Assembly: GCA_016198705.1 (NCBI GenBank)
Contig: JACQIA010000066.1
Coordinates: 3,610 to 67,609 of the forward strand
Length of the DNA stretch: 64,000 bases
Source of the DNA: Candidatus Aenigmatarchaeota archaeon
GTDB lineage: Archaea; Aenigmatarchaeota; Aenigmatarchaeia; CG10238-14; SCSR01
Direction of reading: 5' to 3'
The notes under the pieces are model-generated. The model saw only the letters and a program-made list of their open reading frames with translations, was not told the DNA's origin and did no database searches. Made by a program: the position numbers and the translations under genes. Below, in pieces: positions 3,254-27,936 of this stretch; within the stretch, counting starts at the first letter, position 1; every line of letters starts with the position of its first letter.

Positions 3254-3351
3254 GCGCCGAGAGGGAGATTTGAACTCCCAAGAGCTTTCGCTCGCTGGTT
3301 CACTTCCAATAGACTCAAGACCAGTGCCATACCGGATTAGGCGATCTCGGC
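3254..3351 (-). tRNA. tRNA-Ser(UGA) with long variable arm and about 13-nt intron
   Basis: Acceptor GCCGAGA/UCUCGGC with discriminator G and encoded CC; 3-bp D-stem; anticodon stem CUGGU/ACCAG with loop CUUGAG[intron]A; long variable arm CGAGCGAAAGCUCUU; T-arm GGGAG-UUCAAAU-CUCCC. Confidence 0.55.
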
Positions 3352-9382: not shown

Positions 9383-10159
9383 TTACTCAACCCTTTCGTA
9401 GACATACAATTTTTTCAACGCATCATAGATTGCTGAAATTAAATTGATTCTCATGCTTGTATTTCCAAAAGTTTTAACCCAGGCATCCTTAATGCCGGCA
9501 AGTCTGAATATTTTCTTGCTCTCGTCGTTAGCAACCAATCCAACTCCCTTGGGTGCTGGCTGCAAAACAAATCGTACAGAACCGGATTTTCCAGTGATTT
9601 TATAAGGAACACTATGGTTAGTGCCGCAATCACATTCCCAACTTCCGCATCCAAGCTTTATTCTCAGTAAATTCAGCTTCGCCCTTTGGATTGCTTTGGC
9701 TATAGCATCCCTAGTTTCAGGCGCTCTCCCCTGACCTATGCCAACCAAACCGTCTTCATTTCCTACCACAGCATATGCAGATGTGGTGAACCTTCTGCCA
9801 GATTTGTGCATAGCAGCAGTTATCCTAACTGGTATTCTCTGTATGCCGCCGCCTTTACCAGCTCTTCCGCCAATAAGAATTAATTCATTCTTTATATTCG
9901 GAACTAGCATGTCTATTATTTCAGGTTCAGCTATTCTCCTGCCTGATTTAAGCACATCATCGATATTTGTTATCTTCCCATTGAAAACTTCTTGGCCCAG
10001 GCTGGTTTTTGGTTTCCATCTTTCTAAATCCGGCGAAAGCTTTATTTCAGGAACTTCCTCTACCACAGGAACTTCTGCCAATTCCGTTGTTACCACTACT
10101 TCATTGGGTTGCTGCACTTCAATCTCTTTCTTTTCTTCAACCAAACTATCCACCTTCAA
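9383..10159 (-). CDS. rps5: 30S ribosomal protein S5 (uS5) with N-terminal extension
   Basis: dsRBD-like and S5 C-terminal segments (GGRAGKGGGIQRIPVRI..., VVGNEDGLVGIGQG). Between rpl18 and rpl30. Confidence 0.85.
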   Translation of the reverse strand: MKVDSLVEEKKEIEVQQPNEVVVTTELAEVPVVEEVPEIKLSPDLERWKPKTSLGQEVFNGKITNIDDVLKSGRRIAEPEIIDMLVPNIKNELILIGGRAGKGGGIQRIPVRITAAMHKSGRRFTTSAYAVVGNEDGLVGIGQGRAPETRDAIAKAIQRAKLNLLRIKLGCGSWECDCGTNHSVPYKITGKSGSVRFVLQPAPKGVGLVANDESKKIFRLAGIKDAWVKTFGNTSMRINLISAIYDALKKLYVYERVE

Positions 10160-10661
10160 TTATATGTTTAACCTTTTCAAATGCAGAAGGCAATTCTTTA
10201 AATTTGTTATTAACAGCTATATGCTTTCCAAGTACCCTGTCATCAGAAGGCAGTATCTCCTTTTCTACAGGAACGTTCAACCCACCATCTACAGCCCCTT
10301 TAACAACAGCATAAATTCTATTGCCTTTGGTAGACGAGTACAGGCCAGAATCCAAAATGGCTTCTTTGATGTTGCTCTTCGCAGCTTGCTTGCCCAGAGC
10401 CAATCCAGTCAAGTATGCGGCAGATATATTGTCGCATGCGAATTTCCATCCAATTTTCTTCAGCTGTTTGCTGTATGATGATAAAATTATCTTGTCGCCT
10501 TTGCCGTCGAATTCAACTATCTGTGCTGTGATGTAGTTTAAACTCCTTCGTACAACCAATCTTAGTCTTCTAGATTTCAACATCTTCAATCTTCTCTTAT
10601 AATCGGTTTTGCCCAACCTAGTTCTTTTGAACGGCATTCTGTATCTCGGTGACAGCTTCAT
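10146..10661 (-). CDS. rpl18: 50S ribosomal protein L18 (uL18)
   Basis: FKRTRLGKTDYKRRLKMLKS N-terminus characteristic of archaeal uL18. Confidence 0.85.
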   Translation of the reverse strand: MKLSPRYRMPFKRTRLGKTDYKRRLKMLKSRRLRLVVRRSLNYITAQIVEFDGKGDKIILSSYSKQLKKIGWKFACDNISAAYLTGLALGKQAAKSNIKEAILDSGLYSSTKGNRIYAVVKGAVDGGLNVPVEKEILPSDDRVLGKHIAVNNKFKELPSAFEKVKHIIEGG

Positions 10662-11086
10662 TTACCCACCTTCTTAAGAAAATCATGCTGCTCAAGATAA
10701 ATCCTCAAGTGGTGCTTGCTTCTGAACATTCCACCTTTGACCATCAAGCGCATTTTTTTATAAGTGCTATTGTCTATCTGGGTTGAAGTTTTCAATTCTT
10801 TCAGCATAGCACGCAAAGGCCTTACAGTATGTATCCATCTTCTTTTTTTCGGCCATAGGGCGAATTTGGAACCCTTTCTGCCGCCTGTGCTTCTCCTCTT
10901 CCTCTTTTCTTTGGGCATCTTTAGTTTTCCAGGCAGAGCTTTCACAGCATTTTGATTGACTAATTTCTTTACATCAATCCTGGTTATGGCCTTTTCCACA
11001 TCTTTTACTTTATTTGGATCCAGCCAAACTTTCGACATTCCCACCTTGAGTATTTTTGCTGCTAGTTTCTTTTGGAAGCTTGCCAT
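10658..11086 (-). CDS. rpl19e: 50S ribosomal protein L19e
   Basis: MASFQKKLAAKILKVGMSKVWLDP N-terminus typical of L19e. Confidence 0.85.
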   Translation of the reverse strand: MASFQKKLAAKILKVGMSKVWLDPNKVKDVEKAITRIDVKKLVNQNAVKALPGKLKMPKEKRKRRSTGGRKGSKFALWPKKRRWIHTVRPLRAMLKELKTSTQIDNSTYKKMRLMVKGGMFRSKHHLRIYLEQHDFLKKVGK

Positions 11087-11125
11087 ACCAATTATTTCTT
11101 AAAGTAGAATTTAAATATTTGATAA

Positions 11126-12301
11126 ATGGCTAAGAAGAAAGTTGGGAAAATTCCAGTCAAGTCTATTGCATCAATTATAGTAATTTTAGCTGCAGTGTCT
11201 TTCTTGGGAATAAGACCTAGTTCACTAGGTAGTTTGAAGGAAATTACTCTTCCTGATGGTTTTTCTATCGAAGTTTTTGCCGAAGGGCTAAGTGCTAGCC
11301 CCACTGCCTATCCAGGACCCAATACAGGACCGAGAATGATGGAATTTATTGATGGGGTTTTGTTTGCAAGCATCCCCTCTCAGGGAAAGGTTGTTGCTTT
11401 GCCTGATGACAATAATGATTTCAAAGCCGATAGAGTTGTAACCGTGATAGATAAATTAGGAAATCCTCATGGGTTGGAATTTCATGATGGTTGGCTGTAT
11501 ATTGCAGAAGAAGAGCGTGTTATAAGAGTAAAATTAAAGGATAATTTGGAGGCTGATTCAAGCACGCTGGAAGTTTTGGTTGGACATATACCGAATGAGA
11601 GATTGCCACACGGCGGGCATTTCACGAGGACGATAAAAATTTTTAATAACAGTCTGTATTTGAGCGCTGGTTCTGGTTGCAATGTTTGCTATGAACAAGA
11701 TGAGAGAAGGGCTGCGGTCACTAAATGCGATTTGGATGGGAAGAATTGCAAGACATTTGCTAAAGGAATTAGGAATGCTGTCGGATTTGTTTTTCATCCA
11801 ATTACTGGAGAGATGTATGCTACTGAGAATGGAAGAGATTTGCTGGGAGATGATTTACCGCCGGATGAAATAAATATAATCAAAGAAGGGAAGGATTATG
11901 GCTGGCCTATATGCTATGGGAAGAATATTCATGACACGGATTTTGACAAGAATGTTTACATAAGAGATCCATGTGCTGATAAGGAGCCGTCATTGATAGA
12001 TCTGCAGGCGCATTCAGCTCCATTGGGTTTGGCATTTTATTATGGAAATAATTTCCCTGAAGGATACAAGGGAGATTTGTTTGTTGCCTATCATGGTTCT
12101 TGGAACAGGGGTGAACCAACTGGATATAAGATTGTTAGGATTAAGGTTGGTGAGAAGAAGGTGGAGGATTTTGCTACGGGATGGTTGACGGGAACTACTG
12201 TAACAGGCAGGCCTGTAGGTATAATAATTGCTAGTGATGGAAGTATGTTTGTTTCTGATGATAATGCGGGGAAGATTTATAGAATAAGTTATATAGGATA
12301 A
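11126..12301 (+). CDS. PQQ-dependent soluble sugar (glucose/sorbosone) dehydrogenase-like beta-propeller protein
   Basis: N-terminal TM/signal, then a 6-bladed propeller pattern with HGL/HGGH/HGSWNRG motifs resembling SGDH/Asd family. Opposite strand to the flanking ribosomal genes. Confidence 0.55.
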   Translation: MAKKKVGKIPVKSIASIIVILAAVSFLGIRPSSLGSLKEITLPDGFSIEVFAEGLSASPTAYPGPNTGPRMMEFIDGVLFASIPSQGKVVALPDDNNDFKADRVVTVIDKLGNPHGLEFHDGWLYIAEEERVIRVKLKDNLEADSSTLEVLVGHIPNERLPHGGHFTRTIKIFNNSLYLSAGSGCNVCYEQDERRAAVTKCDLDGKNCKTFAKGIRNAVGFVFHPITGEMYATENGRDLLGDDLPPDEINIIKEGKDYGWPICYGKNIHDTDFDKNVYIRDPCADKEPSLIDLQAHSAPLGLAFYYGNNFPEGYKGDLFVAYHGSWNRGEPTGYKIVRIKVGEKKVEDFATGWLTGTTVTGRPVGIIIASDGSMFVSDDNAGKIYRISYIG

Positions 12302-17757: not shown

Positions 17758-18456
17758 TTAGGTTGCAAGGACATTAGGAACATTTTGCAAAGAACCGTTT
17801 ACCCATTCATCTATTTCTTGGTCTGTCAGTCCTTTCAATGGCGTTTCTGACCAATAGCTGTTTATAACAACATGAGGATCAATATGGTGTCTTCTTCCAT
17901 TAGGAAAAACGTGCACAGGGACAGCACCGAAACGTCTATGAATCCTAACAGCTTCTTTTGGACTATATGTGAAAAGATTTGGATATTGTTTAAAATTCTC
18001 AATTGCGTATAAAATAGTCTCTATAGTTACTTGACCTCGAATTCTTTGGCTATCGTCATAAGATTCAAATTGGAACAACAACATAGTATCAGGTTCTTTA
18101 GCATCCCCATTGCTTCTAACTTCTTCTGCAGTAGGTGGAATGTTTTTCGGGTCACCATGTGTCTGAAGTTTATATATCTCAAGACCACCTACTATCCCAT
18201 CGGTAGAATCGGAAGTGCCATTAAGCCTTGCAATATATATTGTACCTGGCCGTTCTTGTATATGCCCAACTAATGCAGGCACATCATCATGCGCATATCC
18301 TCCCCATATTTCCCGTCTTCTTCGTACCAAATATCCCATTTCCTGTTCCGAAAGCAATGTTGGACTTACTAATGCTGTAATATTGAGTACCCTTTTCTCT
18401 TGAGGAATAAAAAGTCGCGATGATGGTGCGTATAATTGATTTGATACAGTCACCAT
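17758..18456 (-). CDS. hypothetical protein (232 aa), compositionally atypical
   Basis: Intact ORF, GC-richer, CGN codons, adjacent to a tRNA gene. No confident motif; weak GNAT-like impression only. Confidence 0.35.
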   Translation of the reverse strand: MVTVSNQLYAPSSRLFIPQEKRVLNITALVSPTLLSEQEMGYLVRRRREIWGGYAHDDVPALVGHIQERPGTIYIARLNGTSDSTDGIVGGLEIYKLQTHGDPKNIPPTAEEVRSNGDAKEPDTMLLFQFESYDDSQRIRGQVTIETILYAIENFKQYPNLFTYSPKEAVRIHRRFGAVPVHVFPNGRRHHIDPHVVINSYWSETPLKGLTDQEIDEWVNGSLQNVPNVLAT

Positions 18457-18540
18457 AAAATCATTATCCTATTTATTGTAATTAAGGCTTAAATAATTAA
18501 TGTGTAGAAACAAGTCTTTTAGCAAACTTTAAATATAGAA

Positions 18541-19083
18541 ATGTTCGAGCAGATAACTATGGAAGATGAAATGAAAGAAGAAACCAAAGAAGCCCAAAAT
18601 ATTGAAAATAAAATTCTAGATACGTCTAAAGATACCAATACCGAAGAAATATTGCCTAAAGAAATAGAAGAGAAAGTTGAAGCAAATTTAACAACAGAAG
18701 AGGATGAGGAAAACAAAAAGAAAAATAAAAATGAAGAGGAGTCAAAAGAAACCAAACAGCATAATTCTTATTCCATATCTCCAATAGACGCGCAAGTATT
18801 GTATGAAGCATATAAAAACCGTCATTCATCGTCTTACCAAAATGTGGAGGTAGTTCTTTATTCTTATCAAGTGCCGTGGTTCGCTACTGCTATGACTGAT
18901 GGCAATAAAATTTGGTTTGGCCCGAGGATGGAATTTTACGATCCGCACACAAATGACAGATTGTATCATGAGTTGAGCCACTGGAGAATTGCTACTCCAT
19001 ACGGAACTGAATTGGATGTAGAAACTATGGCGCAGTTGCAATTACCAAGAAATAACAGTGTTAGTATTTCATACAAACTTTAA
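18541..19083 (+). CDS. hypothetical protein with acidic low-complexity N-terminus and HExxH (YHELSHW) zincin-like motif
   Basis: N-terminal E/K/D-rich about 70 aa. C-terminal region contains HELSH, a minimal HExxH metal-binding motif (SprT/WLM-like impression). Confidence 0.35.
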   Translation: MFEQITMEDEMKEETKEAQNIENKILDTSKDTNTEEILPKEIEEKVEANLTTEEDEENKKKNKNEEESKETKQHNSYSISPIDAQVLYEAYKNRHSSSYQNVEVVLYSYQVPWFATAMTDGNKIWFGPRMEFYDPHTNDRLYHELSHWRIATPYGTELDVETMAQLQLPRNNSVSISYKL

Positions 19084-19592
19084 GTAACTTCACTCTCTCT
19101 TTTAATCCAATAAACATCTTCCTTGCTCCTTGACGGTCCAGTGGATTTCTCATCCTTTACTTCGGGCATTGGTACTTCTTTTTTGGGCATCTCAACATGC
19201 ACCGCTTTGATTTTATTCGCCACGTCATTCAATTCCTGTTCTGTAGTTTGCATAGGCTGGTTTTCAACCAAAGGAATTTCCTTTTCATAGACAGGATATA
19301 CTCTTATGTGGAAATGTGGAACTTCTTGAGATGGGATAATGGAAAAATCAACTGTTAGAGGGTTCAAGGCTTTTTTAATCATCTTGCCAACAATTTGTGC
19401 CGCCTGAAATACTGTTGTGGAGCTTTCTAAATTTTCATCGAACTCTATGTAATGCTGTTTTGGTGCTATTATGGTCATGCCTGCTGAACGAGGCGCTATA
19501 TCTAAGAAAGCTATAGAATTCAGATCCTCATAGACAACAAAAGCTTTAATTTTCTTGTTTACAATATCGCAAAAAACGCATTTTTCTGGCAT
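19080..19592 (-). CDS. HIT-family hydrolase with C-terminal extension
   Basis: CVFCDIV...YEDLNSIAFLDIAPRSAGMTIIAPKQH and HFHIRVYP (HxHxR variant of the histidine triad). Confidence 0.65.
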   Translation of the reverse strand: MPEKCVFCDIVNKKIKAFVVYEDLNSIAFLDIAPRSAGMTIIAPKQHYIEFDENLESSTTVFQAAQIVGKMIKKALNPLTVDFSIIPSQEVPHFHIRVYPVYEKEIPLVENQPMQTTEQELNDVANKIKAVHVEMPKKEVPMPEVKDEKSTGPSRSKEDVYWIKRESEVT

Positions 19593-19704
19593 ACGAATAA
19601 TTTAACTTAGAATGTTTATATTACCCTTCGGCAATACTAAGATTAATTTTAAACCTTTTTAACTATTCTTATCTAAAAATTATAATCCAAAATAAGGCGA
19701 TTTC

Positions 19705-20679
19705 ATGCCACAAGTCAGAAGACCAAGACGAGGAAGTCTGCAATTCCATCCAAGGGTTAGATCTAAAAGAATGTATCCTACAATTACAACATATCCGATT
19801 ACAGACAAACCCAAAGCTCTGGCATTCGCCGGCTACAAATCAGGAATGCTTCATGCAATGATTTCAGATAACAATAAAAACTCTCCCACTTTTGGGCAAG
19901 AAATTTCAGTTCCAGTAACAGTTTTGGATTGCCCTCCTTTGAAGGTAATCGGGATTAGGGCATATAAAAATTCGTACAATGGTTTGAGCGCTTTAAAAGA
20001 AGCTATAGCAAAAGATTTGCCTAAAAACTTGTCTAGAAAAATCAATATTGGCGAATTTAAAACAGAGGAAAACTTATCAGCCATAGAAAAGAATTTGGAT
20101 AAAGTATCCAACTTGCGCTTAATTGTTTCCACCCAACCAAAGCTTTCTGGCATAGGCAAAAAAACTCCTGAAATATTCGAGATAGAAATTGGCGGGGCAA
20201 ATGCAGGCGAAAAATTAACTTTTGCTAAACAAGTGCTTGGTAAAGAAATCAAGCCTAGTGATGTGGTCAAAGAAGGCGAATTGGTTGATACTGTAGCCAT
20301 TACTAAAGGCAAGGGAACAGTAGGACCTGTTAAAAGATACGGCGTTAAAATACAAAACAGGCATGCAAAACAAAAACGTAGACATGTAGGGGCAATAGCA
20401 GCACAAACACCAGGGAGGGTTTTATGGACATCTCCAATGGCAGGGCAGTTTGGATTGTTTACAAGAACTGAATTAAACAAAAGGATATTGAAGATTGGAG
20501 ATGGGGTAGAAATCAATCCTAAATCCGGATTTACACGATATGGCATTATCAAAAGTAATTATATTTTAGTACAAGGCTCTGTACCTGGCGCTAAGAAAAG
20601 ATTGGTATTGTTAAGGCCTGCTATCAGACCATCCAAAATTAAATTGTTAGTTCCTGAAATTAAACAGGTAGTGAAGTGA
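19705..20679 (+). CDS. rpl3: 50S ribosomal protein L3 (uL3)
   Basis: MPQVRRPRRGSLQFHPRVRSKR start and 324 aa length typical of archaeal uL3. Confidence 0.9.
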   Translation: MPQVRRPRRGSLQFHPRVRSKRMYPTITTYPITDKPKALAFAGYKSGMLHAMISDNNKNSPTFGQEISVPVTVLDCPPLKVIGIRAYKNSYNGLSALKEAIAKDLPKNLSRKINIGEFKTEENLSAIEKNLDKVSNLRLIVSTQPKLSGIGKKTPEIFEIEIGGANAGEKLTFAKQVLGKEIKPSDVVKEGELVDTVAITKGKGTVGPVKRYGVKIQNRHAKQKRRHVGAIAAQTPGRVLWTSPMAGQFGLFTRTELNKRILKIGDGVEINPKSGFTRYGIIKSNYILVQGSVPGAKKRLVLLRPAIRPSKIKLLVPEIKQVVK

Positions 20680-20680
20680 T

Positions 20681-20920
20681 ATGACTTTAGCTCATGTATT
20701 TTCACCATATAATCTGAGTAGGAGATATGATCGAACCTATACATTTAGACTAATAAAAGAGAAAGCTGTTTATCTAGTGCCGCCAGAAGAGGTTGATAGA
20801 ATAATACTACCGCCTATTCTAGGATTCTATGATACCGATTTTGCTATAATTTTTAGTCCGGAAGGATACACAGAATTTTTAAATCGATTAGACAAACATG
20901 GTAAGAGAATTGTGGGATAA
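20681..20920 (+). CDS. hypothetical small protein (79 aa) inserted between rpl3 and rpl4
   Basis: ATG 1 nt after the rpl3 TGA (...gtgaagTGAtATGact). Intact ORF, no known motif. Confidence 0.4.
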   Translation: MTLAHVFSPYNLSRRYDRTYTFRLIKEKAVYLVPPEEVDRIILPPILGFYDTDFAIIFSPEGYTEFLNRLDKHGKRIVG

Positions 20921-20967
20921 GTGTGTTTTAGTATGTTTAACTTAAAAGGAAAATTAAATAAATAAAA

Positions 20968-21423
20968 ATGATTTTTATGACAACTGTTGCAAAACGCGAA
21001 AGAGAATTGTTCGGAGAAATAGATCAATTGGTTATTGATTTATGCAGCTTACGCCCTGTGCTGAATAAAGATTCAGCTATTAGCATTGCCGGACAAATAA
21101 AAAGAGCTCATAAAGCAGGAGTTGGTAGTGGGGCTTACATAGAAACTCTAACAATGGGGGTTATTTTAGTCAATTACGCATTCGAACATATGCAAATTAC
21201 TGCCGACGATGTAAATAAATTAATTGGAGTTAGCATTCGTAGATTTAATTCTTTAGGGCCATATGGCTGTGGGGTATTAATTACTGCTGATAATTATGAT
21301 GGACGCCAGCGTAGATTTCCTACTTATGAGTTAGCCAATACAGAACTCGGGAAAAAATATATTGATATAGCATCAAGATTAATACCTAAATTAAAATCAT
21401 TAGATAGTTTGAGAGTTGCTTAA
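20968..21423 (+). CDS. hypothetical protein (151 aa) inserted between rpl3 and rpl4
   Basis: Intact ORF with CGN codons. Its end overlaps the rpl4 start. No known motif. Confidence 0.4.
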   Translation: MIFMTTVAKRERELFGEIDQLVIDLCSLRPVLNKDSAISIAGQIKRAHKAGVGSGAYIETLTMGVILVNYAFEHMQITADDVNKLIGVSIRRFNSLGPYGCGVLITADNYDGRQRRFPTYELANTELGKKYIDIASRLIPKLKSLDSLRVA

Positions 21424-22228
21424 TATGCAAGCTAGTGTTTTAGATTTAAACGGCAAACCTGTAGAACAAATAGAATTACCCAAAATTTTTTCCGAACCAA
21501 TAAGGGAAGATTTAATTTTGCGCGCAGTATTATCATCACAAAGCAGAAGAAGACAGCCGTATGGAACTAGCCCCTTGGCAGGCAAAAGAACAGCTGCAGG
21601 CTTTCATGGTGGGAGACCTGGCAGAACTGGTGCACATAGATGGGCAATGGTAGGAAGGGAGATGGCCCGATTGCCTAGATTGCATGGCAAGACTGTTCCT
21701 TGGCTGACATTTAGAGCTAGGTTTGTCCCACAGGCAGTCAAAGGAAGAGAAGCATTTCCTCCGCTAGTTGAAAGGGTATGGGAACAAAAAATTAACCATA
21801 AAGAAAGGAAGAAAGCAATAATGTCAGCTATCTCTGCTACAGCAATTAAAGAATTGGTTGTCAAACGCGGGCATAAAGTGGAAAAATTGAAGTTGCCTTT
21901 AGTGGTTGAAGATAAAGTGCAAAGCATCTCTAAAACCAAAGATTTGGTGGAATTTTTGGAAAAAATCGGATTACAAGGCGAGTTGCAGAGGATAAAAGAA
22001 AAGAAAATCAGGGCTGGCAAAGGCAAATCTAGGGGCAGACGCTATAAAAAGAAAACAGGGATTTTATTTATTATAACTGAAGATAAAGGTATAAGCAAAT
22101 CTGTGAAAAACTTGACCGGATGTAATGTCTGCAGAGTGGAAAATCTTTCTACAGAGTATCTTGCACCTGGTGCTAGTCTAGGGAGATTGACAATTTTTAC
22201 CAAATCAGCTATAGAGAAGTTGAAGTGA
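21416..22228 (+). CDS. rpl4: 50S ribosomal protein L4 (uL4)
   Basis: 270 aa with [30 protein letters not shown] region typical of archaeal uL4. Confidence 0.85.
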
Positions 22229-22494
22229 TAAAGATGGATCCCCATAAAATATTGAATTATCCGCATATGACAGAAAAGTCTGTGTCGTTGATCGAGAGAG
22301 AGAACAAGATTACATTTATAGTAAACATGAAAGCAGACAAAAAACAGATAAAAGAAGCTGTGGAAAAGGTGTTTGAAGTCAAAGTTGATAAAGTGAATAC
22401 ATTGATTACTGCTAGTGGCCAGAAAAAGGCTTTTGTAAAACTGAGGCCAGAATTCAAAGCTATAGATGTAGCAGTTAAGTTAGGAATAGTGTGA
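22225..22494 (+). CDS. rpl23: 50S ribosomal protein L23 (uL23)
   Basis: 89 aa with [25 protein letters not shown] and KKAFVKL typical of uL23. Overlaps the rpl4 stop. Confidence 0.85.
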
Positions 22495-22497
22495 TTT

Positions 22498-23202
22498 ATG
22501 GGTAAACGAATAATTCCACGAGCAAGAGGCAAGGGAAGCCAGAGATACAGATCTCCAAGCCATAGATTTCTGGGCAAGGTAGAATATTTTCCTTTTGGCA
22601 ATATGGCTGGAAAGGTTATGGATATACAGCACGATCCTGGAAGGTCAGCACCAGTTGCAATTATAAAAACTCAAGATGGAAAAGAAATTCTGCATATAGC
22701 CCCAGAAGGTTTGAGAGTTGGGGATATTGTTAACTATGAAGGCGAGGTTACAGTTGGCAATGTCTTAGGATTGGGAAAGATTCCAGAAGGAACAAAAGTA
22801 TTCGGCGTAGAAACATATCCAGGCTCAGGTCCAAAATTATGCAGAAGCAGCGGTGTCTTTGCTCAAGTGATTGGCAGGTCTGGTAGCAATATTTTAATCC
22901 AATTCACATCAGGAGCTGTGAAGGAAATAGATGCACGATGCAGAGCGACTATAGGAATACCAGCTGGCGGGGGCAGGGTGGAGAAGCCTTGGGTAAAAGT
23001 TGGCAAAAAGTGGCATGCATTGCATGCAAGAAGCAAGATATATCCACGAGCTGCTGGAGTGACGATGAATCCTGTAGACCATCCTTACGGAGGCAAGAGC
23101 CACAGACCCAGGCCATCAAGAACTGTATCGAGAAACGCCCCGCCTGGAGCAAAAGTTGGAAGCATATCAGCAAAAAGAGTTGGAAAGAGAAAGGGAAGCT
23201 AA
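22498..23202 (+). CDS. rpl2: 50S ribosomal protein L2 (uL2)
   Basis: MGKRIIPRARGKGSQRYRSPSHRF and NPVDHPYGGKSHRPRPSRTVSRNAPPG typical of uL2. Confidence 0.9.
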   Translation: MGKRIIPRARGKGSQRYRSPSHRFLGKVEYFPFGNMAGKVMDIQHDPGRSAPVAIIKTQDGKEILHIAPEGLRVGDIVNYEGEVTVGNVLGLGKIPEGTKVFGVETYPGSGPKLCRSSGVFAQVIGRSGSNILIQFTSGAVKEIDARCRATIGIPAGGGRVEKPWVKVGKKWHALHARSKIYPRAAGVTMNPVDHPYGGKSHRPRPSRTVSRNAPPGAKVGSISAKRVGKRKGS

Positions 23203-23233
23203 TTTTATATCTATGAGATAATTAAGTGATTGT

Positions 23234-23641
23234 ATGGTAAAAGAATTCCATTTCCGGGGAAAGAATCTAGAAGAACTTAAGAAGATGTCTATTGACGAGG
23301 TTGCCAAGTTATTCCCATCTAGAGCCAGAAGAAGTTTGAGAAGAGGATTTACAGAACAGCATAAAAAACTTTTAGAGGGTATAAGAAAAAATCCAGATAA
23401 ATTCCATAAAACGCATGTAAGGGATATGATAATTTTGCCTGAGATGAGTGGTGCCAAGCTGGGCATTTATAAAGGAGGAGCCAAGGCCGGTGATAGCAGC
23501 AAGTGGGTTAATGTTGTTATTACTCCTCAGATGATTGGACATAGGATTGGGGAATACAGCATACCTATAGGAAGAGTGAAACATTCAGCTCCTGGAATTG
23601 GTGCTTCTAAGGGCAGTAAGCATATCGCCACTAAAACGTAA
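23234..23641 (+). CDS. rps19: 30S ribosomal protein S19 (uS19)
   Basis: FHFRGKNLEEL...GHRIGEYSIPIG; GHR(L/I)GE motif typical of uS19. Confidence 0.85.
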   Translation: MVKEFHFRGKNLEELKKMSIDEVAKLFPSRARRSLRRGFTEQHKKLLEGIRKNPDKFHKTHVRDMIILPEMSGAKLGIYKGGAKAGDSSKWVNVVITPQMIGHRIGEYSIPIGRVKHSAPGIGASKGSKHIATKT

Positions 23642-23645
23642 GTTA

Positions 23646-24011
23646 ATGATTTTTATGCAAGCCTCATCAAAACTAACAGATGCGAAAATATCTTTTAAAA
23701 GTTCACTTGTTTTATCAGGCGAATTAAAAGGCTTGAAAGCAGATAAGGCTGAACAATTTCTCAATAATTTGCTAGATCAAAAAGTCAGCATAGAGGGCAA
23801 ATATTATCCCAATGTCACGAAAGTTTACCTGGAAGTCTTGAAATCAGCTGAAGCCAATGCCAGGCAGAAGAATTTGGATACAGAAAAATTATTTGTTAAA
23901 ATTGCTAAGGCAGACAAGGCAAGGAAATTCGTCAGGCCTAAATCAAGGTTTAAGTTTAGAGGAAGGGAAGGCAAAGCTACTAATGTAGAAATTGTGCTGG
24001 AAGAACGATAA
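23646..24011 (+). CDS. rpl22: 50S ribosomal protein L22 (uL22)
   Basis: In-frame ATG at 23646 just after the rps19 stop. KISFKSSLVLSGELKGLKADKAEQFLNNLLD...GREGKATNVEIVLEE typical of uL22. Confidence 0.8.
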   Translation: MIFMQASSKLTDAKISFKSSLVLSGELKGLKADKAEQFLNNLLDQKVSIEGKYYPNVTKVYLEVLKSAEANARQKNLDTEKLFVKIAKADKARKFVRPKSRFKFRGREGKATNVEIVLEER

Positions 24012-24049
24012 CAATAGACTTTATACAATCTCGGGTTCAATTTTTATAT

Positions 24050-24877
24050 ATGTTCAGAAAATACGGCTTCCTTGGTATTTTGCTAATAGTTTTTGTTGAA
24101 ATAAATTTCTTTTTAAAAATCCAACCATTTGCAAACTGGTATTTTCCAATCATTTGGTTTGGGTATATTTTGACAATTGATGCTCTGGTTTACAAGCTCA
24201 GAGGCAATTCTTTGATAAGCAACAGATTTTCTCAATTTTTAGGTATGGTTATAATCTCTATGCTTTTCTGGTGGATTTTTGAATTTATGAATATATCAGT
24301 GCAAAACTGGAGATATTTGGGTCTTGAAGGCCTTGGTATTTGGAAAGATTTATTTGGCTCCATCTCATTTTCAACTGTGCTGCCTGCATTATTTGAAACT
24401 GTTGAACTAATAAGGGCTATACATCTTTTCGATAAAAGGAAGTTGCATAAAAAATATAAGATTACAAAAGGGTTTTTGCATTCTATGATGTTTCTTGGTG
24501 TTATTTCTTTTACCGCCCCTATATTTTTTCCAACATTTACATTTCCATTAATTTGGATAAGCTTATTCTTAATCCTTGATCCGATAAATTATCTTCATAA
24601 GCAGCCGAGTATCATTGGACATTTAAAAAATGGAAACCTAACAATCCCATTGTCTTTGTTGTTCGCAGGTATCATTTTAGGCTTTCTGTGGGAATTTTGG
24701 AATTATTGGGCAATACCCAAATGGACTTACGATATACCATTCATAGGATTTTTCAAGATTTTTGAAATGCCAATTCTAGGGTATCTAGGCTATTTCCCCT
24801 TTTCATTTGAACTGTATGCTATGTATTGGTTTGCCAGAAGTTTGTTTATTCATAAAGAGCATTTATTGGCTGATTAA
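24050..24877 (+). CDS. polytopic membrane protein (275 aa), Trp/Phe-rich, unknown family
   Basis: About 8 hydrophobic segments. Inserted between rpl22 and rps3. Confidence 0.4.
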   Translation: MFRKYGFLGILLIVFVEINFFLKIQPFANWYFPIIWFGYILTIDALVYKLRGNSLISNRFSQFLGMVIISMLFWWIFEFMNISVQNWRYLGLEGLGIWKDLFGSISFSTVLPALFETVELIRAIHLFDKRKLHKKYKITKGFLHSMMFLGVISFTAPIFFPTFTFPLIWISLFLILDPINYLHKQPSIIGHLKNGNLTIPLSLLFAGIILGFLWEFWNYWAIPKWTYDIPFIGFFKIFEMPILGYLGYFPFSFELYAMYWFARSLFIHKEHLLAD

Positions 24878-24889
24878 TTATAGAGTCTG

Positions 24890-25198
24890 CTAATGACTTT
24901 TTTGTCTTACAACCCAGCGACGAAAAGGTTCATGATCACCAGGCAATCCTATTCCATATTCATCACCAGGCTTTAACTCCATTTCTTCACCCTCTGTTAA
25001 CTTATACCATTCAGATACTCCTCGATAATGCATGTCTAAGTAGAATACCGGTAATTTGTCTTGTACGGCCCTTATTGAAAGATGATGTTTTCTAGTATTC
25101 GGGAAAATAGCCAAAACGCCTGGGTTATCATCACCATAAATTATACCAGATTCCTGAGAATTGTGAATTCTATCAGTAATGTATATTTTTCCTACCAT
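24890..25198 (-). CDS. hypothetical small protein (102 aa), possibly cupin-like
   Basis: Intact ORF convergent with the membrane-protein gene. Weak cupin-like beta pattern only. Confidence 0.3.
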   Translation of the reverse strand: MVGKIYITDRIHNSQESGIIYGDDNPGVLAIFPNTRKHHLSIRAVQDKLPVFYLDMHYRGVSEWYKLTEGEEMELKPGDEYGIGLPGDHEPFRRWVVRQKSH

Positions 25199-26525: not shown

Positions 26526-26936
26526 ATGAAGAAAAAAATGCCAAAAACAGAAGAGGAATGGAAGACGTGTCTTGCTCCTGAAGCGTTTAGCATACTAAGG
26601 AAAAAGGGAACTGAAATACCGTTTACTGGGAAATATGTGAATAATAAGAAGAAAGGGGTGTATGTTTGTGCTGGGTGCGGGAATAGACTGTTTTCTTCTG
26701 ACACAAAATATGAGTCTGGCACGGGTTGGCCGAGTTTTTGGGCTCCGGCTTCTAAAAATGGCATAGAAATGAAGCCAGATAATAGTTTGTTGATGCATCG
26801 GACTGAAATTTTGTGCATGAAATGCAAGGGACACTTGGGGCATGTTTTTGACGATGGTCCTAAACCAACAGGAAAAAGGTTTTGCATAAATTCAGCAGCA
26901 TTACATTTTAAAGAGAAAAAGAAATCTGTTGGATGA
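26526..26936 (+). CDS. msrB: peptide-methionine (R)-S-oxide reductase MsrB
   Basis: CAGCGNRLF...GWPSF...[16 protein letters not shown]; two CxxC pairs and the RC(G)xH(L)GHVF catalytic motif. Confidence 0.85.
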
Positions 26937-27393: not shown

Positions 27394-27936
27394 GTGGATA
27401 TGGTACCAGGACGGTTATTTGGACGAATTCCTTATGTTGTTACAACTCCAACTCCTAATCCTGATATGAGCCTTTCCAAATATCTTTACGAATTGACAGA
27501 TAGACAGATGACAATTTTAGGTCTTGCTGCAACAGCATACACAAATGGAGCAATAGCAGATATTTTATTACTTACTCCTCAAAGTGTGCGGGAATATTTC
27601 AATAGAATTTATATGAAGATGTCAATCCAACCAGACGGCATGGATTCACGGGTCGTGGCTGCACGAACTTATAGATTTGAATTTCCATTCGAAGTTGCTG
27701 ACAGAGAAGCTGGTTTTGTAGGCCTTAATCCTTATGACCGTGAGGTACTCAAATGGCTTGCAGAGGGCTATAGTAATGGTGAAATAGCAAGGCGCATGGG
27801 ATCAACAATTAGAAAGATAAATGGGTATTTTCGACGTGGAATTTATGGGAAGATGGTACTACCAAAAACAATAAAGCCTGATAATGAAAGGGTAAATAAA
27901 AGAGTGTTAGCCATGCTGTTGGCAGATAGAGTTTAG
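27394..27936 (+). CDS. transcription regulator with two tandem LuxR/GerE-type HTH domains
   Basis: LTDRQMTILGLAATAYTNGAIADILLLTPQSVREYFNRIYMKM and LNPYDREVLKWLAEGYSNGEIARRMGSTIRKINGYFRRGIYGKM both fit the LuxR C-terminal HTH pattern. Bacterial-type regulator inside the ribosomal operon. Confidence 0.55.
   Translation: MDMVPGRLFGRIPYVVTTPTPNPDMSLSKYLYELTDRQMTILGLAATAYTNGAIADILLLTPQSVREYFNRIYMKMSIQPDGMDSRVVAARTYRFEFPFEVADREAGFVGLNPYDREVLKWLAEGYSNGEIARRMGSTIRKINGYFRRGIYGKMVLPKTIKPDNERVNKRVLAMLLADRV

Follow-up and report, generated by a model that had tools for sequence, protein, structure and literature searches.

A proposed polymorphic slot between rpl3 and rpl4 in the ribosomal operon of an Aenigmarchaeota clade and its putative passenger genes

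The adjacency of the genes for the ribosomal proteins uL3 and uL4 is among the most conserved gene orders of life, and ribosomal operons are treated as a stable backbone for phylogeny, binning and strain tracking. Accessory genes or divergent DNA-binding alleles that sit at a fixed site and are exchanged via conserved flanks are known from phages, as 'morons' and as the immunity (repressor) regions of lambdoid phages, and the MarR and ArsR-SmtB regulators bind as homodimers to a (pseudo)palindromic operator, usually in their own promoter. Here, we describe a locus of the ribosomal operon that invites comparison with these systems. It lies in a stretch of 64,000 nucleotides (the window; all coordinates are window positions) from contig JACQIA010000066.1 of a metagenome-assembled genome (MAG) of Candidatus Aenigmarchaeota (GCA_016198705.1), a clade of tiny groundwater archaea, in which rpl3 (uL3) and rpl4 (uL4) are separated by two small open reading frames (ORFs), ORF1 and ORF2, the latter called X below. 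We propose, with a probability of roughly 60%, that in this Aenigmarchaeota clade passenger genes without promoters of their own occupy a polymorphic slot at the rpl3-rpl4 junction, and that the window holds two independent passengers in tandem.

In a survey of archaeal ribosomal clusters, uL3, uL4 and uL23 always co-occur and the uL3-uL4 adjacency is described as invariant (PMC10833476), which agrees with the original prediction, made from the DNA letters of the window, that the two genes are normally neighbours. The literature that we searched gave no account of inserts at this junction or of the X family. In the window, the conserved flanks are rpl3 on the left (19705-20679, +; Pfam Ribosomal_L3, E 8e-74) and rpl4 on the right (21425-22228, +; Pfam Ribosomal_L4, E 3e-38). 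Between them, on the same strand, the ORF list and the sequence place ORF1 (20681-20920, 79 aa), a strain-specific orphan, followed by an AT-rich spacer of 56 nt (20921-20976) and by X (20977-21423, 148 aa), delimited by its homologs; NCBI lists the two products as hypothetical proteins HY361_04060 and HY361_04065. As first described, ORF1 begins one nucleotide after the rpl3 stop (TGA-T-ATG). The 151-aa length originally given to ORF2 is obtained from ATG 20968, an alternative start within the spacer that is also kept in the closest allele (L001), and the family alignment favours ATG 20977. The overlap of its end with rpl4 did not survive, as it needs the mechanical start TTG 21416. Homologous L4 proteins all begin M-K/Q-x-x-V/I-L/F-D-L, and the true rpl4 start is for this reason ATG 21425, one nucleotide after the X stop codon (TAA 21421-21423; TAA-T-ATG).

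The nearest homolog of X (P0002, ~65-66% aa identity, E 3.5e-83) is encoded on contig L001, in the order rpl3 - X - rpl4 and without ORF1, where X begins 2 nt past the rpl3 stop. In an exhaustive HMMER search, a two-sequence profile was run against 1.84 billion representative proteins and found six clusters only; among these, besides P0002, are four further X clusters, which the window protein matches at E 1e-14 to 9e-06. Once loci fetched via rpl3 and rpl4 are added, the family comprises about 12 members of 131-159 aa, with clear members in the window and in L001, L002, L010, L011, L012/L013, L014, L015, L022 and L027, and very remote X-like ORFs in L016 (131 aa) and L017 (144 aa; hhalign E 1.3e-3). 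In every locus with both flanks readable (11 of the 12 members, all from one Aenigmarchaeota clade), X is flanked by rpl3 and rpl4. The members share the pattern LxSL…LNSLxPxxCGV…YxL…YIxxAxxL and hydrophobic core positions, and the window protein, the founding member, fits this family definition. The family HMM recognized nothing besides X among 487 ORFs of all loci examined, and a metagenome scan with a window-type X alignment gave no match. The statement that neither ORF carries a recognisable motif was borne out by searches of Pfam (for the window X protein at E up to 1), PHROG, NCBIfam and PADLOC, none of which produced a match to ORF1 or X. As judged from these comparisons, X is a new sequence family confined to one Aenigmarchaeota clade.

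The junction itself is polymorphic, since close relatives hold divergent X alleles, unrelated orphans or nothing. Besides the loci with X or X-like ORFs, small orphans occupy it in the window (ORF1), in L019 (92 aa) and in L030 (85 aa), with no mutual similarity between the three. It is empty, the rpl3 stop overlapping the rpl4 ATG or lying at most 15 nt away, in L003-L007, L018, L020/L029, L023, L024, L025 and L028. At such junctions the rpl4 ATG holds the position, relative to the rpl3 stop, that the ORF1 ATG has in the window (…GTGAAATGATATGAAAGTT…). In the outgroup Aenigmarchaeota L003-L007, L023, L024 and L028 rpl3 adjoins rpl4, and the X-bearing genomes group together in trees of rpl3 and of rpl4, with the empty L018 and L025 nested among them. 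In L019, an insert of 280 bp with the 92-aa orphan extends precisely from the rpl3 stop to the rpl4 ATG; L020/L029 are ~90% identical to L019 in DNA, yet their junction is empty. Cassettes start 0-22 nt past the rpl3 stop and end from 11 nt inside to 1 nt before rpl4, and their ends bear no terminal repeats, inverted repeats or attC-like motifs. Tandem occupancy is seen in the window (ORF1 and X), and a second case may be L014, where a gene other than rpl3 precedes X; there, in positions 1-128 and 566-1000, the C-terminus of the upstream gene (…GLSAKHVARIVKEFVKGRIKKYLVK) overlaps the X start. The L014 contig may be of low quality, or it may carry a second tandem cassette.

Related X alleles occur in distantly related backbones and unrelated cassettes in near-identical ones. 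Up to the rpl3 stop, L002 and L017 share 98.1% of their DNA (L3 99% aa, dS 0.07), and from the rpl4 ATG on they share 93.8%; the ~430 bp of cassette between these points cannot be aligned (X 25% aa), and the breakpoints coincide exactly with the stop of rpl3 and the start of rpl4. The window and L016 share 95% of their DNA through the 3' half of rpl3, are unrelated from the stop codon on, and return to ~80% on the rpl4 side. L022 and L027 have L3 proteins 93% and L4 proteins 94% identical, with X at 26%. The reverse case is given by the window and L001, whose rpl3 genes are far apart (dS 2.26, 66% aa) and whose X alleles are close (dS 0.22, 66% aa), the similarity of 92-97% in DNA continuing ~100 nt into rpl4 and then collapsing. 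Sliding-window DNA identity and comparison of L4 N-termini delimit in the window a mosaic tract at the 3' end of X and the 5' end of rpl4 (21335-21545, +), which is 92-97% identical to L001, a locus whose rpl3 is only ~65% identical; past ~21545 the rpl4 of the window is 50-65% identical to that of L001 and 80-90% to those of L002 and L015. Homologous recombination via the conserved 3' end of rpl3 and 5' end of rpl4 would be the simplest mechanism for such exchanges. In the ORF1-X spacer, AAATAAAAATGATTTTTATGA is common to the window and L001, where it spans the rpl3 stop. The spacer was considered as a relic of a donor rpl3 3' end and the resemblance is not significant (p 0.06).

Could the window arrangement, and some of the mosaicism, be an assembly artefact that joined co-occurring strains within conserved ribosomal genes? 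Independent Logan assemblies match the window at 99.96% identity over 18290-20943 (rpl3 and ORF1; L031) and again over 21398-24083 (the 3' end of X and rpl4 onward; the exact L4 protein is in L032), and the fact that they stop and resume on either side of X would fit an artefact, as would the presence of several junction states in one metagenome (L016, L017 and L025, which differ in their junction, all come from Ga0213870). The same assemblies, however, reproduce both the rpl3-ORF1 and the X-rpl4 join, X-in-junction recurs in many samples across the NCBI, ENA, JGI and Logan data, one of the contigs being 508 kb long, and chimeras would not yield precise in-frame cassettes. We thus regard an artefact as highly improbable. 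Contig L032 ends (2687-2704) in CTGTCTCTTATACACATC, a Nextera adapter sequence, and this contig end is technical and not biological.

The original prediction saw ORF1 and X as one two-gene cassette and likened it to an addiction or regulatory module. A toxin-antitoxin pair riding on the expression of the ribosomal operon would indeed be expected to look like a small and a larger gene tightly packed on one strand, a helix-turn-helix (HTH)-like fold such as that predicted for X is found in many antitoxins, and a patchy distribution with lateral exchange is typical of such modules. The two genes are, however, not inherited together: 11 other loci have X but lack ORF1, which occurs nowhere else. 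Neither matches a toxin, antitoxin or defence family in Pfam, NCBIfam or PADLOC, the X model resembles a regulator and not a toxin, the family sits at one fixed site per genome and not in scattered copies, and an autoregulated promoter of the module is not evident. The lack of co-occurrence of ORF1 and X largely refutes the toxin-antitoxin explanation, to which we now attach hardly any credence, and with it the two-gene cassette falls.

ORF1 itself seems to be a recent arrival. Among 5.8 billion proteins its only match is itself, and tblastn and six-frame searches found no counterpart in 31 related loci, phage records or viral contigs. Its codon usage is gene-like, with a score that is higher than those of 97.6% of the 83 spurious shadow ORFs taken from the window and lies at the 14th percentile of 79-codon chunks from real genes. 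With this codon usage for ORF1 and homologs for X, both ORFs are more than chance reading frames. The single-sequence AF2 model of ORF1 (pLDDT 46) is uninformative and too poor for classification. Several origins were considered and discarded: descent from X, whether as a fragment or as a diverged copy (hhalign probability 0.2%), leftover DNA from rpl3, rpl4 or some other junction cassette (AT-rich noise only, both in six-frame comparisons and with blastn), and kinship with the L019 and L030 orphans or other small interlopers of the operon (z below 2.1). We suggest that ORF1 may be a young, strain-specific orphan whose main role could be that of a translated spacer, across which ribosomes remain coupled on the way to X and rpl4; for ORF1 alone this spacer role is plausible, if somewhat short of an even chance.

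The same explanation can be extended to all cassette ORFs, which would then be mostly functionless translated spacers whose frame is kept open for rpl4 coupling while their sequence drifts. Evolutionary rates lend it some appeal. Between the window and L001, X shows 18.7 synonymous and 62.3 non-synonymous differences (dN/dS 0.96) with an intact frame, as compared with dN/dS values of 0.07-0.27 for rpl3 and rpl4. Moreover, the unrelated orphans ORF1, L019 and L030 share the slot and its tight start and stop geometry, and the ORF1 model is of low confidence. On the other hand, a frame without stop codons survives in only 4.6% of neutral simulations of this X pair, the two indels that separate the alleles both preserve the frame, and all X members are intact ORFs of similar length. 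Although synonymous divergence is saturated, the X alleles also retain recognisable homology, the pattern LNSLxPxxCGV / YI..A..L and a shared fold that is predicted with confidence, all of which a neutral peptide would lose. Drift further gives no account of why the empty allele, available through recombination, has not swept. Because frame, length, core positions and motif are kept, we favour for X a functional protein with an extreme replacement rate, and the notion that the cassettes at large are idle spacers seems to us quite unlikely.

What kind of protein this may be is suggested by its predicted structure. The AF2 model of X, built from eight sequences, has a pLDDT of 89 and a pTM of 0.85. 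Four helices (4-23, 31-46, 52-71 and 76-83) are followed by two strands (101-103 and 117-119) and a last helix (122-147). The chain opens with three N-terminal helices and passes through a short strand into a helix-turn-(short helix), after which come a beta hairpin, whose loop is basic and variable, and the long C-terminal helix. All of the 50 best Foldseek matches in the Protein Data Bank (PDB) are winged-helix regulators of the MarR, ArsR or CadC type, and a viral structure library gave HTH or MarR-like matches of comparable strength. A PDB sequence-profile search with X returned coiled-coil noise only and no regulator. We consider with moderate confidence that X is a MarR/ArsR-like winged-helix protein of a new sequence family, and probably a nucleic-acid-binding regulator.

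Winged-helix folds are also found in several eukaryotic and archaeal ribosomal proteins, and X could instead be a lineage-specific ribosomal protein or a ribosome assembly or translation factor, made together with uL3 and uL4. Its tight coupling to both neighbours in the operon would fit such a role, and SUI1 and RNase P p29 are normal non-ribosomal passengers of the archaeal cluster that serve translation. In the original prediction, one finding that would have counted against an addiction or regulatory module was that both ORFs are lineage-wide conserved ribosome-associated proteins. X proved to be patchy and hypervariable: it is absent from the close relatives L018 and L025, whose operons are intact, and its alleles in close relatives are 25-45% identical where L3 and L4 are 80-99% identical, with a dN/dS of ~1. 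Nor are its members consistently basic (pI 5.2-9.9), and the 50 best PDB fold matches listed do not include a ribosomal chain. A ribosomal role for X is, in our view, very unlikely.

We favour instead the passenger slot, for which the following scenario can be drawn. The cassettes would be transcribed from the promoter of the ribosomal operon by read-through and translated by termination-reinitiation coupling, and the insertions that survive would be those that spare rpl4 expression. This hitch-hiking on the ribosomal operon, already part of the original prediction, is the natural reading of the 1-nt joins on both sides. The cassette showed neither a promoter nor a palindrome of its own. A TATA-like string, AAAATTAAAT, lies ~20-30 nt upstream of ATG 20977, and we make no claim for it as a promoter of X because such strings are common in a genome of 35% GC. 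The ORF1-X spacer region gave no Rfam match at E up to 5, and RNA structure in the region is not significant (fold z-score -0.48). The use of CGN codons in ORF2, pointed out at the start, is real (5 of 11 Arg codons, as compared with 4 of 21 in rpl3 and 4 of 25 in rpl4), although the difference is marginal. Alleles would pass between co-occurring populations by homologous recombination, with the rpl3 3' end and the rpl4 5' end serving as arms. X may be a small, probably dimeric, winged-helix protein of the MarR/ArsR kind that binds nucleic acid, and could act as a regulator or as a factor of the immunity type, on which selection would be diversifying or frequency-dependent, directed for instance against a virus or another mobile element. 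The presumed coupling of expression to growth rate, the diversity of the alleles and a dN/dS of ~1 speak for such a regulatory or immunity role rather than for a component of the ribosome.

Several points weigh against this scenario. We infer coupling and read-through from the spacing of the genes alone. The body of X (20944-21397) is seen in the MAG only, the Logan contigs breaking at 20943 (L031, inside the spacer) and at 21398, and the mosaics were seen in metagenome assemblies, where chimeras can arise inside conserved genes. As for the family, L016 and L017 belong to it only weakly (18.5 and 14 bits to the family HMM; hhalign probability 18%), and L014, a contig of 1.2 kb whose rpl4 appears frameshifted, has X ahead of rpl4 but a gene other than rpl3 upstream of it. 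With respect to the fold, the Foldseek matches are weak (E ~0.1, TM 0.35-0.40, probability 0.5-0.96) and HTH-type Pfam models, MarR included, match none of the 12 members, even at E up to 10, so that nucleic-acid binding by X is putative. A further point is the wide range of pI within the family. Finally, the dN/dS of ~1 comes from one informative pair and could reflect diversifying selection or relaxed constraint.

A related view would make the junction a 'specificity' locus under balanced polymorphism, where ancient divergent winged-helix alleles, and occasional orphans, are maintained through frequency-dependent selection, driven perhaps by an immunity-type repressor that acts against viruses or other mobile elements, or by a factor of compatibility in a symbiotic lifestyle. 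Alleles would be shuffled among co-occurring populations, with the strongest operon of the cell providing expression and its most conserved sequences the recombination arms. We consider this possible but unlikely; if true, a new kind of accessory or defence hotspot would be hidden within a core ribosomal operon.

The slot is not the only irregularity in this part of the genome, as the ribosomal cluster of these Aenigmarchaeota is unusually permissive to interlopers. Between rpl22 and rps3, the window carries a multi-pass membrane-like ORF of 275 aa (24050-24877, +) and an ORF of 102 aa (24890-25198, -), neither of which has a family match, and in the relatives this interval holds a reverse ORF of 182 aa (L002), or a reverse ORF of 97 aa together with a Y1 transposase (L015). 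The interval has the appearance of another variable slot within this operon. Further downstream in the window, a SelR/MsrB methionine-sulfoxide reductase gene (26526-26936, +) lies between those for SUI1 and RNase P p29, and a gene for a protein with two GerE/LuxR-type HTH domains (27394-27936, +), another DNA-binding passenger, between those for p29 and rps17. Rpl4 and rpl23 abut in the window; in relatives the interval contains ORFs of 89 aa (L002, 8216-8485, -), 58 aa (L015, 7028-7204, +) and 127 aa, the last with a Sigma70_r1_1 match (L013, 5252-5635, -). In L002, a 405-aa ORF between rps19 and rpl22 (10071-11288, +) matches the intein or homing-endonuclease portions of intein-containing NCBIfam models (RFC, RtcB, RpoA'' and GyrA; best E 4e-8) and has no Pfam match above threshold; it is probably a free-standing homing endonuclease gene of the LAGLIDADG type within the ribosomal operon. 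Upstream of rpl3, a HIT-family gene (19080-19592, -) occupies the same position in L002, L012, L013, L015 and L031, and since it is transcribed divergently, the rpl3 promoter region is a short, shared intergenic spacer of 112 nt. At the far left of the window, Rfam detects a third tRNA gene (3255-3351, -; 45 bits) unreported by ARAGORN, whose 97 nt may include an intron.

A strain-variable and laterally exchanged slot at this place would imply that even the ribosomal operon recombines between lineages, with breakpoints inside rpl3 and rpl4, which matters for ribosomal-protein trees and for quality checks of MAGs. It would also show a way in which new genes could gain expression and spread without promoters or dedicated mobility enzymes. 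X represents an uncharacterised, fast-diversifying DPANN family with a predicted winged-helix fold, whose expression would be tied to ribosome synthesis. Should X prove to be an immunity or compatibility factor, it would provide a tractable entry to the conflict biology of uncultivated episymbiotic archaea.

The slot can finally be set against the known systems that it resembles. Known mobile elements were tried and rejected: there are no significant terminal repeats, no target duplication, and no second copy in the window or the 31 loci that would suggest a miniature inverted-repeat transposable element or an insertion sequence, and the cassette contains no nuclease or transposase domain, as a transposable element or a homing endonuclease gene would. 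Type II toxin-antitoxin systems share with the locus a compact two-gene look, confined to the window genome, and the HTH-like fold predicted for X, and differ in that ORF1 and X are not co-inherited, match no family and keep to a single fixed site. MarR and ArsR-SmtB regulators resemble X in their size of ~140-150 aa and in the predicted succession of N-terminal helices, HTH, beta-hairpin wing and long C-terminal helix; unlike them, X has no sequence-profile match (0 of 12 members), reaches TM values of 0.35-0.40 only, has a short putative recognition helix and sits, atypically, in a ribosomal operon without a promoter of its own. The sharp-edged mosaics at the rpl3-rpl4 slot recall phage morons and lambdoid immunity regions, whereas the slot belongs to an essential operon of a cellular chromosome and has no associated promoter, terminator or operator set; slot sequences had no match to phage or viral sequences in pattern scans of IMG/VR and in tblastn against phage records, a comparison that left out the plasmid collection. 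Integron cassettes are likewise promoterless single-ORF units at one site downstream of a strong promoter, sometimes in tandem (as ORF1 and X in the window, or another gene and X in L014) and different between close relatives. In contrast, the boundaries of the slot are stop and start codons, its ends have no attC-like or inverted repeats, and no integrase lies beside it in the window or the annotated loci. Like aIF1/SUI1 and RNase P Rpp29, the established passengers of the archaeal cluster, X is a non-ribosomal gene embedded in, and presumably co-expressed with, an S10/spc-type cluster; unlike them, conserved across archaea and slow to evolve, X belongs to one clade, is dispensable and is hypervariable.

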